Part shown: positions 2,829 through 51,713 of the stretch, piece by piece
Layout of the letters: the number at the start of each line of letters is the position of its first letter
How positions within the stretch are numbered: the stretch's first letter is position 1
From: Octopus vulgaris
Taxonomy: Eukaryota
DNA: 64,000 nucleotides
Assembly (NCBI GenBank): GCA_951406725.2
Contig: OX597819.1
Coordinates: 116,126,001-116,190,000 of the forward strand
Direction: 5' to 3'
Position numbers and translations under genes: made by a program
The notes under the pieces: generated by a model
Told to the model about the DNA's origin: nothing
The model's database searches: none
The model's input: the letters and a program-made list of their open reading frames with translations, nothing else

Positions 2829-3361
2829 TCCCAGGTTGATTCGGGGTTAACCACAGTAAGTAAGGTACTCAATACATAGCAGAGTAAAATTAATTTATTA
2901 TATAGAAGGAGCTTCTACAGGACTAGTACTGTTTCATTCAAGAGAAATCTTCAGGAAGCTATTTAACAAGAATTGTATTAGCATTTATACATTTAGAGGA
3001 GTGGTGGTGGGGGACTTTTTGGGGGTAGGCATAGCGCAAAATATCATACTTGGGGGAGTGGTCAAGGTAATAAAAAAATAAAAAAATAAAAAATAAAAAA
3101 ATAAAAAGATAAAATAAAAGAATAAAAATAAAAAATATAAAAAATATAAAAAATATAAAAAATATAAAAAATATAAAAAATATATATATAAAAAAAATAT
3201 ATAAAAAAATATAAAAAAATATATATATAAAATATATATATAAAAAATATATATATAAAAAAAGGGGGGATAGAGTTATAGGTAAATAAGGAGATTCTCA
3301 CTTATACCTATACACACATGTATACGTATCTACACACACATACGCTCATACACATATATCT

Positions 3362-3412
<51 letters not shown>

Positions 3413-3792
3413 CCTACACATACACACGTACATACATACAAATATACATATACATATATATATATATACAATCCAATACAGGCCCATTCCCTAATTTTAA
3501 TTTTATTATCTTCATTTATTACTTTTGTTATCTTTGATCGCTAAGGCTAAGAATCCTGGCAATAGCTGCTTGTCCATTTGTCTGTCTACTAGAAGGCAAG
3601 TACTCATTCCCGCACGCACACTCATTAGCACGTACATTCACCCATTCGTACACTCATACACATACACGTACGCACGCGTTATATTCATACATACAAACAT
3701 CTACATACGTTCACGTATATACACATACGTACTCGTACCCACAGATTCGTGTCTACACTTTAGGAGGCTAGTCTATACATATACACCAATAA

Positions 3793-5589: not shown

Positions 5590-5814
5590 GAGTACTTGCC
5601 TATATATGAGTACTTGCAAATGAGTACTTGCCTTCTAGTAGACAGACAAATGGACAAGCAGCTATTGCCAGGATTCTTAGCCTTAGCGATCAAAGATAAC
5701 AAAAGTAATAAATGAAGATAATAAAATTAAAATTAGGGAATGGGCCTGTATTGGATTGTATATATATATATATGTATATGTATATTTGTATGTATGTACG
5801 TGTGTATGTGTAGG

Positions 5815-5865
<51 letters not shown>

Positions 5866-6266
5866 AGATATATGTGTATGAGCGTATGTGTGTGTAGATA
5901 CGTATACATGTGTGTATAGGTATAAGTGAGAATCTCCTTATTTACCTATAACTCTATCCCCCCTTTTTTTATATATATATTTTTTATATATATATTTTAT
6001 ATATATATTTTTTTATATTTTTTTATATATTTTTTTTATATATATATTTTTTATATTTTTTATATTTTTTATATTTTTTATATTTTTTATATTTTTTATT
6101 TTTATTCTTTTATTTTATCTTTTTATTTTTTTATTTTTTATTTTTTTATTTTTTTATTACCTTGACCACTCCCCCAAGTATGATATTTTGCGCTATGCCT
6201 ACCCCCAAAAAGTCCCCCACCACCACTCCTCTAAATGTATAAATGCTAATACAATTCTTGTTAAAT

Positions 6267-6317
6267 AGCTTCCTGAAGATTTCTCTTGAATGAAACAGTA
6301 CTAGTCCTGTAGAAGCT
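6267..6317 (+). ncRNA. Minimal type I hammerhead ribozyme motif (inverted copy of 2910-2960)
   Basis: agcttc CTGAAGA tttctcttgaat GAAA cagtactagtcctg TA gaagct, followed by AATAAA near 6328. Confidence 0.8.
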
Positions 6318-6332
6318 CCTTCTATATAATAA

Positions 6333-6401
<69 letters not shown>

Positions 6402-14371: not shown

Positions 14372-14883
14372 TCTATATATATATAAAACTGTAGTTGTGT
14401 GAGTGTCTGTCCCCTTCGATTTAGATTCCTAACTACTCCCACATTTTGCGGTGCAGTTTAACCAAATTCGGGTATCTTATAGTCGTGATTCATATCGAGC
14501 CCGTCTGGCTATTAACGCGCGTCTACGATGAGTCTACGATTTTAAAAATAATTTAACATCATTTTTTATTCCATTTTAATGCATAATTTTTCGTGTGTCG
14601 ATGGCGGCGGAGTTGGCGTCCATGGTCACACCTGCACCTGTTTGCTTCTCCCCTTCTACCCTCCCTCGTGAAGCTGTGGGGAAGGGAGTGTAAGGAAATC
14701 AACGTCGTAAAGCGTTGTCAAGGAGACCAGCGTTCTTTTAGAACAACGACTTCATGGCTTGAAGACACCAAAACAGAAATGGCTAAGAAAGCCCGAATTG
14801 GCATCTATAAGGGAAGTAACTCTAAAAATGCTTATATAGTTATTTCCCTTACAAACCCGAGCAACGCCGGGCGATACTGCTAG
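14372..14883 (+). mobile_element. Non-autonomous Helitron (unit 1 of a tandem)
   Basis: 5' A|TC start (tctatatatatataaaa), 3' hairpin cccgagcaacgccggg and a CTAG end; no TSD. Confidence 0.85.
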
Positions 14884-15280
14884 TCTTTATATATAAAAGT
14901 GAAGTTGTGTGTCTGTCTCCTACGATTTAGATTCCTAACTACTCCCACATTTTGCGGTGCAGTGTAACCAAAAGCGGGTATCTTATAGTCGTGATTCATA
15001 TCGAGCCCTTCTGGGTATTAGCGCGCGTCTACGATGAGTCTACGATTTAAAAAATTATTTACCATAATTTTTTCCCATTTTGATGCATTTTTTCGCTATT
15101 ATATCAGGGAAGTAACTCTCTAAAAATGTCTACGATGAGTCAACGATTAAAAAAAAAATTTACCATCATTTTTTTGCCATTTTTAATGCATTTTTTTGCT
15201 ATTTTTTGGCTATAACTCTCTAAAAATGCTTATATAGTTATTTCCCTTACAAACCCGAGCAACGCCGGGCGATATGCTAG
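14884..15280 (+). mobile_element. Non-autonomous Helitron (unit 2 of a tandem)
   Basis: Starts with TC immediately after the CTAG of unit 1; ends with the same hairpin plus CTAG|T. Confidence 0.85.
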
Positions 15281-17141
15281 TCAATATTAAATCTGAAATA
15301 TTTTGAATTTATAACAGCAGTCTGTGTCTCTTCTTGTGTTTGATATTTCTCATCAGTTGAGTGCTAATCAGTTATACATATGTACAAACGTGGTACAATC
15401 ATGACATGGTGCCTTGGAGACAAAATATATCAAGGGCAACATTATCGAATATCTCCTTCACATTAGAAAAAGAACTTATTTCAAATGAGGAAATTTGGTT
15501 CATTTTCCTAACAGTTTGAGAGACCATTTAGAGGTATTTCATATGAACGCCTTCAGCAACGTGCGTTTTTGGGTTGTAATTGACATCAACTTTGACACCA
15601 AATTTGACATCAGTTTCAAGTCAGAATACTTTCAACACCACATAGTAATGCTTACTTCTCACTTGTGACAAACACGAGGTTAGCAGCAATTACGAACCGC
15701 GATAGTTTCTATTTAATTAATAGCTTTGCTACACAACCAAATATTTGTCACTTACATCTCTGAGAAAGGCCAACTTACTTCTCGTTCCCATTAATATTGA
15801 TTCTATCTGTCTGTTCTGTTTTGGTTTTATTTGGTTAATAGTATTGTGACAGCTAGCGTTATATTTCTTGGCAATGGCCACAGTGTAGCACCGGTAGCAT
15901 TATACACATTATCGAGTGGACCAGCTGGGTTCCTTTGTATTCAGAATAGAATGGGTGGTGTGAGGGATGGAGATCTCACCTACTAAGATACACAATGTAA
16001 AAGACTCCCATTCGTGAATACCATAGAATGAGTAAACAAACTAGTGTTTGATTATCTACGAAAGTATAAGATTGCGTCTTTAGAATAAACCTTGGAGTTT
16101 TGTCATTAATAATAAAGAAAAATCGAGATTGTATGAATGGCCACAAGGCTATAGTACCAAATTAACCATTCTCTTCTGTCAAGAACGAATCAACTTTGTT
16201 GAACGGGTGAAAATATATTATGTTTAAATAATTAAATGTGTTTCAATGTGAAATGCCTTCGGCCATACTGCTTATCACATTGACCATTACCTTTCCAATT
16301 GAATTCGAACATTTTTCCTTTTTTTCTTCTCTCTTTCTATCGATCTATCAATTTCTACTACTCTCTCGCTCTCTACCTCATTCTTCCTCTGTAGCATGTG
16401 TGTGCTCGTATATATCTTTCTCTGTGCGTAGGTGTGTGCGTAAACACAATACATGAAAATAACAAAGTTTGACAAGCGGCAAGATCGATCTCTGCTAAAA
16501 TACTCATGTTATCAAATTCAATTACTCTGATATATACAAGACAGGATGCTAATACAATATTCATCCTCACAACCATGTGAGATAATTGGGTTTGCATGAA
16601 TGTTACTAATACGTCAATATTCTCTATCATCGAGGCCTTCACTCTATTATTTGCTACACAAGCAATTAGTAGCCAGGAGGCTGTAGTAAGTTGAATACAG
16701 ATACCAAATAACAAAAGAAAGGAAAGACAAAATTATAAAAACAAAATCAAGAAGCAACGGGCAATGAGAAGGAGAGATTCAAACACCCGTGCAAAATTAA
16801 TTGTATTCCCCACATAGCGTTTTTGCATACTGTGAATACAGATAGAAGCATTCTAGTTATAGAGACGAAGTAACACATAATATATCTGAATATTCACACC
16901 AGTTTAGCTACCTCACATTTTCACACACTCACACTTCAGTTACCCTGCATCTACACACATTCTCGAGCACAAGCACACAAACAGACACACACACAGAGAC
17001 ACACACACACACACAAACACACACACATTCATGTGTACATATGTGTCTGCGTTTCCGTGTATGTGGTACGATTAAGTATGTATAACTGCTTACATATGTG
17101 TGTATGAATGTATATGTATATGTATATCTATATCTATAACT

Positions 17142-29654: not shown

Positions 29655-29771
29655 CTCTCTTCCTTCCCTCTCTTTATATATATATGTATATATATAATAA
29701 TATAAATTATATATACATATATGCATATATACATACATATATTTACATACCTACATATATATGTATATATA

Positions 29772-30110
29772 TGGGTACAGGACATCAAAAAAAGTTGAAC
29801 AAAATGAGAAACGAAAACATACAAAATCATAGAAACGAACTTCTTTTCAAACAACGAAAAAAAAAACAAAACATAGAAAAACGAAACATACAACATAAAG
29901 AATATTCCCCCTTCATTCAATTGTCCCTGTTTCATCTACTCCTCGTTTGAAGGTAAGGACAAGACGCGACTTCTGTGAAACTATTCTTCCCGCAAAGCAA
30001 TTTAAATAAAATTTGTGATTTTTTGCGGAGGGTGAAAGTGGTAACAAGAACAGGACAGTGAGAACAAAACAGTAAAAAATGTAAAAGACAAAACGATGAG
30101 AACAATGAGT
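29772..30110 (-). mobile_element. (TA)n-flanked repeat related to the 48573-51693 unit, carrying a decayed rearranged hammerhead
   Basis: Shares the terminal motif gtacaggacatcaaaa, an A-rich spacer, the HHR-like block and the downstream aatt.aaataaaatt with the 48.6-51.7 kb repeat. Confidence 0.65.
29907..29968 (-). ncRNA. Rearranged (non-circularly permuted) hammerhead-like motif, decayed
   Basis: Minus strand: CGCGU-C-UUGUCC-uua-CCUUC-[g]AAA-CGAG-linker-GGACAA-uUGAaUGA-a-GGGGG. The GUC triplet and 6-bp helix I are intact; the core carries mutations. Confidence 0.6.
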
Positions 30111-30482
30111 TATATATATATAAAAGTAAGGTTGTGTGTCCGTCTCCTACGATTTAGATTCCTAACTACTCCCACATTTTGCGGTGCAGTTTAACCAAAA
30201 CCGGGTATCTTATAGTCGTGATTCATATCGAGCCCTTCTGGGTATTAGCGCGCGTCTACGAGTCTACGATTAAAAAAAAAATTACCATAATTTTTTTCCA
30301 TTTTAATGCATTTTTTCGCTATTATATAAGGGAAGTAACTCTCTAATAATGTCTACGATGAGACAACGATTTGGAAAAAAAATTACCATCATTTTTTTGC
30401 TATTTTTGGGCTATAACTCTCTAAAAATGCTTATATAGTTATTTCCCTTACAAACCCGAGCAACGCCGGGCGATACTGCTGG
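30111..30482 (+). mobile_element. Non-autonomous Helitron (same family as 14884-15280)
   Basis: Near-identical body; 3' hairpin cccgagcaacgccggg and a CTGG end. Confidence 0.85.
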
Positions 30483-31287
30483 TATATATATATATGTTAT
30501 GCACTATCGGGGACAGAAACTGACGCTGGTTATAAATTTTCACAGCACACACCCATCTAAACAAGCGGAGAGTGAGAGAAGGGGAGAGAGAGAGAGCAAG
30601 AGAAAGAGGGTGATGGCGGAAAAGAGAAGGGGAGGGGGAGAGAAGAGTGAGTAAGTGAGAGAGCGAGAAAGAAAGAGGAAGAGGGAGAGAGAAGGAGTAA
30701 AACATTTAAATCCGTTGAAACAGACGATAACCGGCATTGTCTGACAAGCTTTCATAAGAAATTTCCCTGCGGTGTTCTATATATAAGTTGTGGTGTGGTG
30801 AAGAATAAAGAATCTAATTCTTCTTTCTCTTTTACTCGTCGAAAGTGAAGAATAAACTACAAAAAATTTAACATGCAACTTTGTTATATACAACGGCCAT
30901 TCATCGATAAAATCTGGTCGATCTTCATCAGAATTACAGATGGTATTATCTCTAGCACACTGACATTAGTGAGCCTTGATACATGTCTATAATCCAAGGC
31001 GTTGAAACCATGAATACGGCAAAATACCTGAATTTACCATTCATGATAAAAGCTTTGACAACAGCGAGAAAGTGTTGGACTGTTCAAACACGTAATAGTA
31101 ATTACGATAAGACATTACCGAATTTACATCTTCCTAACTACACTAACATCATGCCAATGACCGTGGAAAATATCAGAGACCATTTTTTTTTCTTTTTGCA
31201 CCATGTATTTTTGCGAGCGGGATTGGATTAGTTACTTTGTCCATCTGTAGAATATAGGCACCTTGTATTTATTTGGAGCAAAATAAG

Positions 31288-48565: not shown

Positions 48566-48786
48566 TATATATAATAAAAATATATGCATACATACAAACA
48601 TATATGTACGTACCTACATCTACATGTATATATACATGCATATATAAATAATTATACGTGAGTACAGGACATCAAAATAAGACGTAGAAACGGGAAAAAA
48701 CAAAAAAACAAAAAAAACAAGAAAACGAAAAACAAAAAACAAGGAAACGAAAAAACAATTACAGGACGAGCTACACAAGGAAAAAA

Positions 48787-48848
48787 CCCCCGTCATCAGC
48801 TGTCGCTAGTGGAGTCAAGCATGTTTCGAAGGCAGAGACAGAACACTA
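48787..48848 (-). ncRNA. Rearranged (non-circularly permuted) hammerhead-like motif
   Basis: Minus strand: GUGU-U-CUGUC-ucug-CCUUC-GAAA-CAUg-15 nt-GACAG-CUGAUGA-c-GGGGG. Helix I is cuguc/gacag, helix II is ccuuc/ggggg, helix III is Acau/gugU, and the core is intact. Confidence 0.7.
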
Positions 48849-48850
48849 AT

Positions 48851-50569
48851 CCAAACGTTGGTAGACTCAACAGGCGTATCGATTGAGGACCCTTATCAAC
48901 AGAGTCAATTATTTGCCGAGGCTTTTTCAACTATTTTCAAACAAGATGATGGTCGTGAACCCCCTCCATTTGATAGATCGGTACCTCCAATACCTAGATT
49001 GGTCATCACGCGGGACGAAGTCAAACGTGTTATTCAAGGCCTCGATGTCAACAAGGGTCACGGCCCTGACGGCATACACCCACGGGTTATCAAAGCGTTG
49101 GCTCCGGTCATCTGCGAGCCCTTAACACGTCTATTCAATATGTCATTGGCGACGGGTGTTATACCTGCGGACTGGAGAACAGCGATAATCTGCCCAATTT
49201 TCAAGAAAGGGAGCCGCGAAGACCCGCTTAGCTACCGACCGGTTTCCCTTACATCAATAATCAGCAAGATGTTCGAAACCATCCTTAAAGAAAAGTATGA
49301 TGCTCCACCTCCAAAACACAGCCCCTATCTCTGATTCCCAACACGGCTTCGTGCCGAAGAGATCATGCTTGACCAACTTACTGGTAATGGAAGAATTGGT
49401 GACGCGCATCCTCGATGATAGTGATGCTGTTGACATCGTTTTATTGGACTTTGCCAAAGCTTTTGACTCGGTAAACCACCGCCTATTACTTGTCAAGCTT
49501 CAAGCATATAGTTTCCATCCGGATATTGTACGATGGGTTGGTGCCTTCCTCTCAGATCGCTCCTTCCAAGTCCAAGTTAATGGTTCGCTGTCCGACGTCT
49601 CCAGTGCGAGCAGTGGCGTGCCTCAAGGTTCAGTGCTTGGGCCCTTATTGTTCTTAGTCTTCATAAATGACTTGCCCGACGACCTCACGCAACACACCCT
49701 TCTATTTGCCGACGATATCAAACTGGTCGCTCCTCGCGGTGATATAGAGGATCTTCGTCGATGCCTCCACCAAATTTGGAAGTGGTCTAACGAATGGGAC
49801 CTGTGTCTGAACGTGTCAAAGTGCTGTCATCTGCCTGTTGGCTCTCCTCCTGCAACTCAACTTGATTTCGAGCCGGGTCGTCTGCTGCTGGAGAGGACCG
49901 ATCAGGTAAAGGACCTGGGTATCTTGGTGGATTCCTCCTTTTCGCCTTCGGCCCAGTGCGTCCATGCTGCCAACAAAGCACGCGGAATTCTGTTCTTGAT
50001 TCGACGGTCATTCGGAATGCTCACAGCAGCCATATTCCTACCACTCTATGTCACGCTGGTGAGACCCATATTGGAGTACGGGATTCAAGCCTCTTCTCCT
50101 TATCTCCTCAAAGACATACAGCATCTCGAAAGAGTCCAGAAGCTGGCTACCCGCATGGTTCATGGTCTCAAAAATTTGTCCTATGAAGAAAGGCTGAGGA
50201 GGCTCGACCTTTATTCTCTTTAAAAACGCCGCTGCCGTGGTGATCTCATTCTCGCCCACAACATAATAAGCGGAAAGTGTAACCTCTCGAAAGAGCTGTT
50301 CTTCACTCCTGCTCCAGAGCGTCGGCTGCGGGGTCATTCCGAAAAGCTCTACCTGCGACGATTTCATCTCAATCGAAGGAGAGGAGCTTTCTCCATCCGG
50401 GTTGCGGATCCGTGGAACAAGCTGCCAGACGAGATGGTGAAGATGCCGACGACCGCTTTGTTCAAAGTCTCCCTTGACCTCAAGTGGCCTGAACTCTTTA
50501 CATGAACACCACCCTGTACTTAACTCCATGTCCCCCTACATGGCCTTGCTATTTGCTTTCGAGCCAAAT

Positions 50570-50600
<31 letters not shown>
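48851..50600 (+). mobile_element. 5'-truncated CR1-group LINE (RT pseudogene) with (AACT)n tail
   Basis: ORFs 48858-49334 and 49297-50223 contain GPDGI, YRPVSLTS, QHGF, DFAKAFDSVNH, SGVPQGSVLGPLLFLVFINDL, LFADDIK and LERVQ. Frameshift near 49290, premature stop at 50221, tail ~50570-50600. Confidence 0.95.
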
Positions 50601-51455
50601 AGGCCTTCCTGCGAGAGAATTAAAATAAAATTCCAAGCAGCGGGACAAAATGAGTACGAACACGAACAAGACGTAACAATAAAACTGCAAAAATAAAAAT
50701 ACATGTACAAAAAATACAAATAATTACAAAACGAGAAAATAAAAAGAGAATACGATACAGGAAGTCAAACACACAAGAGGACGAACGAAAAAGCCTTTTT
50801 TTCTGGCATAGACAACAATAAAACTGCAAAAATAAAAATACATGTACAAAAAATACAAATAATTACAAAACGAGAAAATAAAAAGAGAATACGATACAGG
50901 AAATCAAACATACAAGAGGACGAACGAAAAAGCCTTTTCTTGGCGAAGACGAAGGATACTGTAGCAGCGCGTGGAGGCAGTCTTTTCAGTAGTAAGAACC
51001 ACGTGTAAAAGAAATTTTATTTTATAGGCTGGCAGTAAGGAAGAAGGAAGGAGGAGGGGGACACGCGGCTGAGAGAGAGAGGAGGAGTGGAAGGGAGAGA
51101 GAGTGAAGAGGTTAAAGCAAAGGGAGAGAATTCCGCATCTTAAATATAATAATATAAAAAAAAAAACAGGAACCAAGAAGTGGAACGAAACAACGAATCG
51201 GAACGAACCTGATGCGGGGCGCTGTCAGACAATAAGGTGATAAATAAAAATATATGCATACATACAAACATATATGTACGTACCTACATCTACATGTATA
51301 TATACATGCATATATAAATAATTATACGTGAGTACAGGACATCACAATAAGACGTAGAAACGGGAAAAAACAAAAAAACAAAAAACAAGAATACGAAAAA
51401 CAAAAAACAAAAAAACGAAAAAACAATTACAGGACGAGCTACACAAGGAAAAAAA

Positions 51456-51515
51456 CCCGTCATCAGCTGTCGCTAGTGGAGTCAAGCATGTTTCGAAGGC
51501 AGAGACAGAACACTA
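51456..51515 (-). ncRNA. Rearranged hammerhead-like motif (second monomer)
   Basis: Identical to 48787-48848 except for a shorter G-run (GGG) in helix II. Confidence 0.65.
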
Positions 51516-51713
51516 ATTCAATAGGCCTTCCTGCGAGAGAATTAAAATAAAATTCCCAGCAGCGGGGCAAAATGAGTACGAAGACGAACAAGACGTAACA
51601 ATAAAACTGCAAAAGTAAAAATACATGTACAAAAAATACAAATAATTACAAAACGAGAAAATAAAAAGAGAATACGATACAGGAAATCAAACATGTATAT
51701 ATATATCAATCAA

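Follow-up and report, generated by a model that had tools for sequence, protein, structure and literature searches.

Evidence for a conserved hammerhead fold with rearranged strand order, probably opened inside its core, in a repeat family of Octopus vulgaris

The repeat copies in the window

The window, by which the whole analysed stretch of 64,000 nucleotides is meant (Octopus vulgaris, contig OX597819.1, positions 116,126,001 to 116,190,000), is AT-rich and microsatellite-rich and belongs to a genome of 2.8 Gb. Its minus strand holds a 5′-truncated repeat copy of subfamily A1 and two copies of subfamily B, with parts of a hammerhead ribozyme in rearranged order (Table 1). An earlier sequence-only reading had described such a hammerhead at 29907-29968, and its strands, including the GUC triplet, were found as described on the minus strand from 29968 to 29907. 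That interval covers the core, but it omits the leader and the helix IV 5′ arm (29976-29989), both mutated here. The same reading took this copy to be probably dead, which it very likely is: C3U and an inserted U are found in the core, GAAA is one base short, helix III contains a mismatch and the two upstream strands are changed. One extra nucleotide is indeed present in the core; since the family core is CUGAAGA, it is to be read as a U after A7 (accompanied by an extra G in the G-run) and not as an A.

Besides itself, the window copy has 40 scored relatives at 83-89% (the best 40 of 4360 candidates), and it matches a longer copy at 87% over 30078-29755. The family with which it had been compared (CUGUC/GACAG, GUGU/ACAU) lies at 48573-48854 and 50601-51693 of the window, and on the plus strand, at 48860-50600, a LINE reverse-transcriptase fragment sits inside the second subfamily B copy, between leader and core and beside (TAAC)n. 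Another dispersed repeat occurs at 14374-15287 and 30111-30494 (about 88% alike), its second copy adjoining the 5′ end of the A1 copy, and a 720-base inverted duplication of 99.7% identity occupies 2889-3608 and 5619-6338.

Table 1. Repeat copies in the window and the parts assigned to the predicted fold (window positions)
Feature	Positions	Strand	Remarks
Repeat copy, subfamily A1, 5′-truncated	29700..30110 (boundaries approximate)	-	(TA)n runs flank both sides
Leader strand, putative 5′ strand of helix II	29985..29989	-	family GAAGG, here GAAGA
Helix IV 5′ arm	29976..29983	-	family CUGUUUCA; damaged in this copy
Helix III 3′ strand and GUC triplet	29963..29968	-	CGCGU at 29968-29964; predicted cut between 29963 and 29962
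Helix I 5′ strand UUGUCC	29957..29962	-	followed by a 3-nt linker
Helix II 3′ strand CCUUC	29949..29953	-	C11.1 is 29949
Damaged GAAA and helix III 5′ strand	29942..29948	-	AAA, one base missing; ACGAG at 29946-29942, family ACGCG
GA-rich internal-loop strand and helix IV 3′ arm UGAAACAG	29927..29941	-	
Helix I 3′ strand GGACAA	29921..29926	-	
Damaged CUGAAGA core, here UUGAAUGA	29913..29920	-	C3U, inserted U
Extra A and G-run (AGGGGG) after A9	29907..29912	-	weaker alternative partner of CCUUC
Ribozyme copy, subfamily B, leader and intact core	51452..51530	-	
Second tandem subfamily B copy	48785..48854	-	leader at about 50601-50610, split off by LINE insertion

The repeat family and its core

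A pattern joining CCTTCGAAAC to CTGANGA-N-GGGG has 4,381 matches in the genome and none for a reversed control, and a second pattern, which excludes that helix II strand, adds 3,481 matches (control 7), most of them belonging to the family in which TGCTC precedes GAAA. When the majority base is taken at each column of the 30 best loci, CCTTC-GAAA-CGCG and the complementarity of TTGTCC and GGACAA are restored, both of which had been predicted from the window copy. The predicted GGACAA-CTGATGA is recovered in its first half, but the core that follows is CTGAAGA, with A at position 7, which is still a valid CUGANGA; CTGANGA occurs in 26 of the 29 best other copies and CTGATGA in one. Individual copies are decayed to different degrees: among the 29 best A1 relatives, 25 keep a GUH triplet and 20 have both helix I strands exact, while CGAAA is found in 7 and the whole core in 6.

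Eight subfamilies were told apart, which are homologous because they have flanking sequence in common. For this reason the description of the window subfamily as independent had to be given up: it and the comparison family share a 3′ flank (70% over 110 nt). The block order S-G-C (site, GAAA, CUGANGA) is found in the subfamilies, and GAAA is the majority in all of them; the A15.1-U16.1 pair is kept as U-A in 19 of 20 aligned rows, the NUH triplet is GUC, GUA, GUU or AUA, and the catalytic bases are invariant or nearly so, although the helices differ. At E-value thresholds Rfam gave no hammerhead among the 150 listed of 223 window matches, all of them microsatellite-driven miRNA models, and none in an intact copy. 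Four contig sets cover the repeat, one of them with a second organism label; such contigs cannot show ends or strand.

Pairing across subfamilies

Covariation was assessed on 20 hand-picked near-majority copies from the 8 subfamilies, three Naiad-type rows and the window row being left out as misaligned by MAFFT. The leader with the helix II 3′ strand is paired in 98%, helix III in 97% and helix I in 93%, and changes on both sides occur in 12 of the 16 pairs of these three helices, whereas slid controls reach 32-44% paired. On both the cells paired and the covariation score the structure exceeds all 500 shuffles. These counts are inflated by common ancestry, nonetheless the core is constant through repeated changes of pair type. 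Helix I shows two-sided change in 5 of 6 pairs and helix III in 4 of 5, so that the compensatory change asserted by the sequence-only reading holds across subfamilies, and because it does, selection on the RNA structure is the reading that fits best. That a real, conserved and rearranged hammerhead fold exists in the family is, on this evidence, highly probable.

In each subfamily a further helix, IV, can form; one of its strands lies 5′ of the cut site and the other immediately precedes the 3′ side of helix I. This pairing was read subfamily by subfamily, and the paired sequences differ: CUGUUUCA/UGAAACAG, CUAGUUC/GAACUAG, CUGUCU/AGACAG and CGGAU/AUCCG. A hairpin directly after A9 was considered as a conserved fifth helix and rejected, since the Naiad type lacks it and it is weak in A, C and D, being stable (2% of shuffles as stable) only in subfamily B. 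A kink-turn consists in its consensus of a 3-nt bulge followed by tandem G.A pairs; compared with this, the Naiad type has the features of the bulged strand in 30/35 and those of the opposite strand in 19/35, and by eye A and D fit loosely and B does not.

The partner of helix II and the published permuted hammerheads

The rearranged strand order is real, but as a block order it has already been published as type-SGC, a class known from metatranscriptomes, metagenomes and RefSeq that cleaves in cis (HRIMA-1 and a variant; Eckert et al., 2023; PMC10085705). The octopus motif resembles type-SGC in the order of site, GAAA and CUGANGA, in its full core, in the short linker between helices I and II and in a fourth helix beside helix I, and it has the extra base after A9 seen in the HRIMA-1 rows of the published alignment. 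In type-SGC, block C is assumed to be indivisible and to supply helix II, and the partner of the fourth helix lies 3′ of it, whereas in the octopus repeat the better helix II partner and the fourth-helix partner both lie 5′ of the cut site. Since the helix IV arm stands 5′ of block S in all subfamilies, and not at the downstream position of type-SGC, the motif is set apart as a variant of that type. It is also an animal repeat, while the source text and supplement, as far as accessible, hold no octopus, mollusc, metazoan or transposon terms apart from references.

The pairing CCUUC/GGGGG, to which helix II had been assigned, came out weaker in comparison: the strand before GAAA covaries better with the 5′ leader, and the assignment is probably a mistaken one. 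The leader is the Watson-Crick complement of that strand (GAAGG:CCUUC, GAGCA:UGCUC, GACAC:GUGUC), and the leader helix, paired at 98%, has three two-sided changes, which stem from a single split of A/B/C vs D, while the downstream helix is 79% paired with wobbles and one two-sided change. A perfect 5-bp leader match is present in 41/52 untruncated copies with CCTTC, 22/32 with GTGTC and 9/20 with TGCTC, and in none in two control zones of equal width. Duplex energies favour the leader over the downstream strand by 2.6-8.3 kcal/mol in 6/6 representatives (minimum-energy folds cannot show the pseudoknots). The leader ends 1-3 nt before the helix IV arm, a place taken by the helix II strand in the type-CSG motifs that were read by eye in nematode Naiads. 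Type-CSG hammerheads, of which two sequences are known in the same study (PMC10085705), have the same circle of blocks opened at another point, and there the arm of the fourth helix directly follows the 5′ strand of helix II. The leader is favoured as the helix II strand because it leads straight into the fourth helix in the same manner.

These comparisons have to be weighed against what is kept downstream, where every family still has G-C and G.U pairing to the two bases that immediately precede GAAA. The motif could thus be an ordinary type-SGC hammerhead, or a hybrid, in which the GG after CUGANGA-N provides G10.1 and perhaps the next pair, and in which the leader supplies the outer pairs of helix II or serves as an off-switch that is displaced before cutting. 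We hold this possible but would not expect it. Every family, the Naiad type included, has N-G-G following the core and U-C preceding GAAA, the HRIMA-1 alignment shares the extra base after A9, and the spider and ostracod Naiad consensus ends appear by eye to use the downstream strand for helix II; yet the downstream pairing of 79%, with its wobbles, drops to 2-3 scattered pairs in the Naiad type and the duplex to about 0 kcal/mol in D and N, and in the leader, too, a G and an A are retained for pairing with the two innermost bases. A G able to pair with C11.1 is in fact kept in both strands, and the GG downstream could be what is left of a duplicate of the helix II 5′ strand.

The preferred reading is therefore one in which the leader is the 5′ strand of helix II and the chain is opened between A9 and G10.1, so that the motif would share its circle of blocks with SGC and CSG and differ in this point of opening; we put its probability at slightly below 0.6.

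Traces bearing on cleavage

Copies that span the predicted cut site differ from copies truncated just 3′ of it. A search for site-spanning A1 copies, exact at flanking positions, found 136, and tallies were made by hand from the 100 listed. In these, AAA is kept in 20 and one A is lost in 21, A13 is T in 19, G in 16 and C in 3, and 21 have other changes. The one-A loss bears on the GAAA gap of the window copy, which had been taken as loss of G12: a base is missing there, but it may be a lost A combined with a CpG G>A change. GAAA is kept in 20/100 listed site-spanning copies as against 46/72 listed truncated ones (Fisher p 6e-9), and when 19 copies with A2-type linkers are set aside, in 30/53 truncated ones (p 9e-6). 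In 17 distinct site-spanning A1 copies, picked by the downstream core only, A13 is off the majority in 8, compared with a median of 1 for the other non-CpG columns. Cut templates cannot yield site-spanning copies, and a damaged core is therefore expected to be enriched among these, as is seen; the contrast fits cleavage in vivo, so far as genomic copies can tell.

Selection for dead templates alone does not, however, predict lesions on A13 alone, to which the A1 lesions are almost confined. Changes of A13 (T, G, C, deletion) recur on different subfamily backgrounds, and truncated A1 copies are changed as well (26/72). A13 is kept in site-spanning copies of the Naiad type (30/31), of D (11/11) and of off-centre B (6/6). 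One may ask whether a modified base is involved, since mixed substitutions together with arrest form the signature of m1A in reverse transcription (PMC4787781). A13 occupies the A58 position of UUCGA, and TRMT6/61A sites for m1A have been described as GUUCRA in a hairpin with a 7-nt loop (10.1101/202747). A1 has instead CUUCGA, a C.C closing pair and a weak stem of 3-4 bp, and because this motif and hairpin are not found, an m1A origin of the A13 lesions is possibly a lead and is offered only as such.

The 5′ ends of copies cluster between site and core: in 27 distinct places 20 lie 3′ of the site, 3 upstream and 4 are unclear, and in a sample chosen by the downstream core only, 12/30 lie 3′ of the site. 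A pile-up exactly at the cut site was looked for and rejected, with about 3/90, 1/27 and 0/30 in three samples. Stalling of reverse transcriptase at structure, together with TA microhomology in the linker, would also explain the clustering. At four loci (L227, L236, L165 and L166) small internal deletions start at the cut site or close to it, or take out a helix arm; these could be repair scars of cut templates.

A different reading of these traces is that no monomer cuts, the motif acting only between tandem copies or two RNAs, or its fold being kept for protein binding (e.g., recognition by a Penelope-like protein) with vestigial catalysis. We regard this as quite improbable. Tandem copies are common, a second direct copy being present at 5/30 A1 and 12/30 B loci, minimal Penelope hammerheads are reported to act as dimers, and the core is damaged in most site-spanning A1 copies; but all helices can form within one unit, the catalytic bases hold across subfamilies whose helices differ, and cis cleavage has been published for SGC RNAs (PMC10085705). 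Chance resemblance within a repeat, to which an unenriched CTGANGA in the window (19 vs 20.8 expected) and the lack of an Rfam hammerhead among the matches listed might point, is refuted by near-zero controls against thousands of matches and by covariation beyond all 500 shuffles and all slid controls, and Rfam models cannot match a permuted order.

The host element

The copies end alike on the 3′ side, at (TA)n, and are truncated to different extents on the 5′ side; neighbouring copies occur in direct or inverted orientation, and the units, of about 0.6-1.0 kb, are mostly 5′-truncated singletons. (TA)5 lies within 280 nt downstream in 17/21 copies of A, 22/30 of B, 8/13 of C and 17/23 of D, in a genome where (TA)n density is high throughout. 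No ORF was found in the shared parts of families A-D. A tRNA-derived SINE is not indicated, since no tRNA-like head was found, ARAGORN (which can miss decayed heads) predicting 0 genes in 5/5 loci. The repeat is likely a non-autonomous Penelope-like retroelement.

Among Penelope-like elements, Naiads are reported to target (TA)n and to lack canonical hammerheads, eight of them being marked HHR_half_core (Craig et al., 2021; PMC8557442). The octopus repeat shares with them the (TA)n targets, partial tandems and inverted truncated copies, and the Naiad_Obim and Naiad_Ovul consensus 3′ ends in the supplement hold the same design, i.e., they end in the same fold. A Naiad-type pattern has 313 matches in the genome (control 0). 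Naiad copies in this genome have decayed, at 82-93% to the query; subfamily B, at 92-98%, is young. At two loci (L215, L216) Naiad-like linker or reverse-transcriptase fragments lie upstream on the strand of the motif; Pfam returned nothing for four Naiad-like fragments, which were assigned by eye from likeness to the supplement text. Families A-D differ from Naiads in having no ORF in their shared parts and, by BLAST, no match to the Naiad-type 3′ end outside the motif.

Read by eye in the supplement, other Naiad ends carry related forms. Five nematode ends (Nbra-1, -2, -3, Hcon, Hpol) look like type-CSG hammerheads that have a fourth helix, the Asuum end looks like a CSG core, one spider and one ostracod end (Smim, Dst-4) read as type-SGC with long insertions and an ordinary helix II, and no such motif was seen in most bivalve and hemichordate ends, which are displayed in part.

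Another candidate for the host, a Penelope-like element with a 775-aa ORF of the GIY-YIG kind found beside a family A copy (L030), was rejected because the permuted motif occurs in only 2/30 of its loci, both times antisense; BLAST of A-D against this young element gave no match beyond (TA)n, and as a mobiliser of the repeat it is a candidate at most. The young element itself is seen at L121:1624-9493 (G000:C1:27840000-27849900) as head-to-tail repeats of 4271 bases with many near-identical copies, in which a 454-aa ORF precedes the 775-aa RT/GIY-YIG ORF, and its 3′ UTR contains what reads by eye as a canonical minimal type I hammerhead. Non-coding tandem repeats with hammerheads, for which a Penelope-like origin is proposed, have been described as non-LTR retrozymes (Li, Clavereau, Pollet, 2026; bioRxiv 10.64898/2026.07.22.740005). 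The octopus repeat is alike in these respects, but non-LTR retrozymes are defined by type I hammerheads, and the octopus order is permuted.

Proposed mechanism and significance

From 5′ to 3′ the parts are the leader, a helix IV arm, a helix III strand bearing the predicted cut site, the first helix I strand, the strand of helix II joined to GAAA and the other helix III strand, the second helix IV arm, and the second helix I strand followed by CUGANGA. In the proposed model the 5′ strand of helix II is likely to be supplied by the upstream leader and not by what follows CUGANGA; the chain would thus be open between A9 and G10.1, and a second junction, in which helices I, II and IV meet, may replace the usual contact of loop I with loop II. 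For the intact RNA, self-cleavage after GUC is predicted. Such cleavage would process tandem transcripts and set the 5′ ends of templates, a Penelope-like reverse transcriptase/endonuclease may copy the RNA in trans, and templates with a damaged or blocked core would escape cutting and yield most of the site-spanning copies.

A more far-reaching combination, speculative and on the whole unlikely, is that a hammerhead whose core is opened between A9 and G10.1, with a second junction caging it, represents, together with the SGC and CSG forms in other phyla, the missing ribozyme of Naiads and their parasites, and that in A1 a host methyltransferase marks A13 (m1A in UUCGA) and switches the ribozyme off, the mark being kept in retrocopies that escaped cutting.

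In the openly accessible papers searched, no report of permuted hammerheads in animal retroelements was found. If the motif cleaves, the published rule of a single indivisible block made up of CUGANGA and its helix II strand would no longer hold, and a hammerhead topology missed by standard searches would be added. Non-circular permutations, so far a matter of rare viroid-like contigs, would then be present in an animal genome in thousands of copies, and Naiads could no longer be said to spread without a hammerhead. The function of hammerheads in Penelope-like elements has been called unclear (PMC8557442), and the contrast between site-spanning and truncated copies makes it testable from genome sequence alone.
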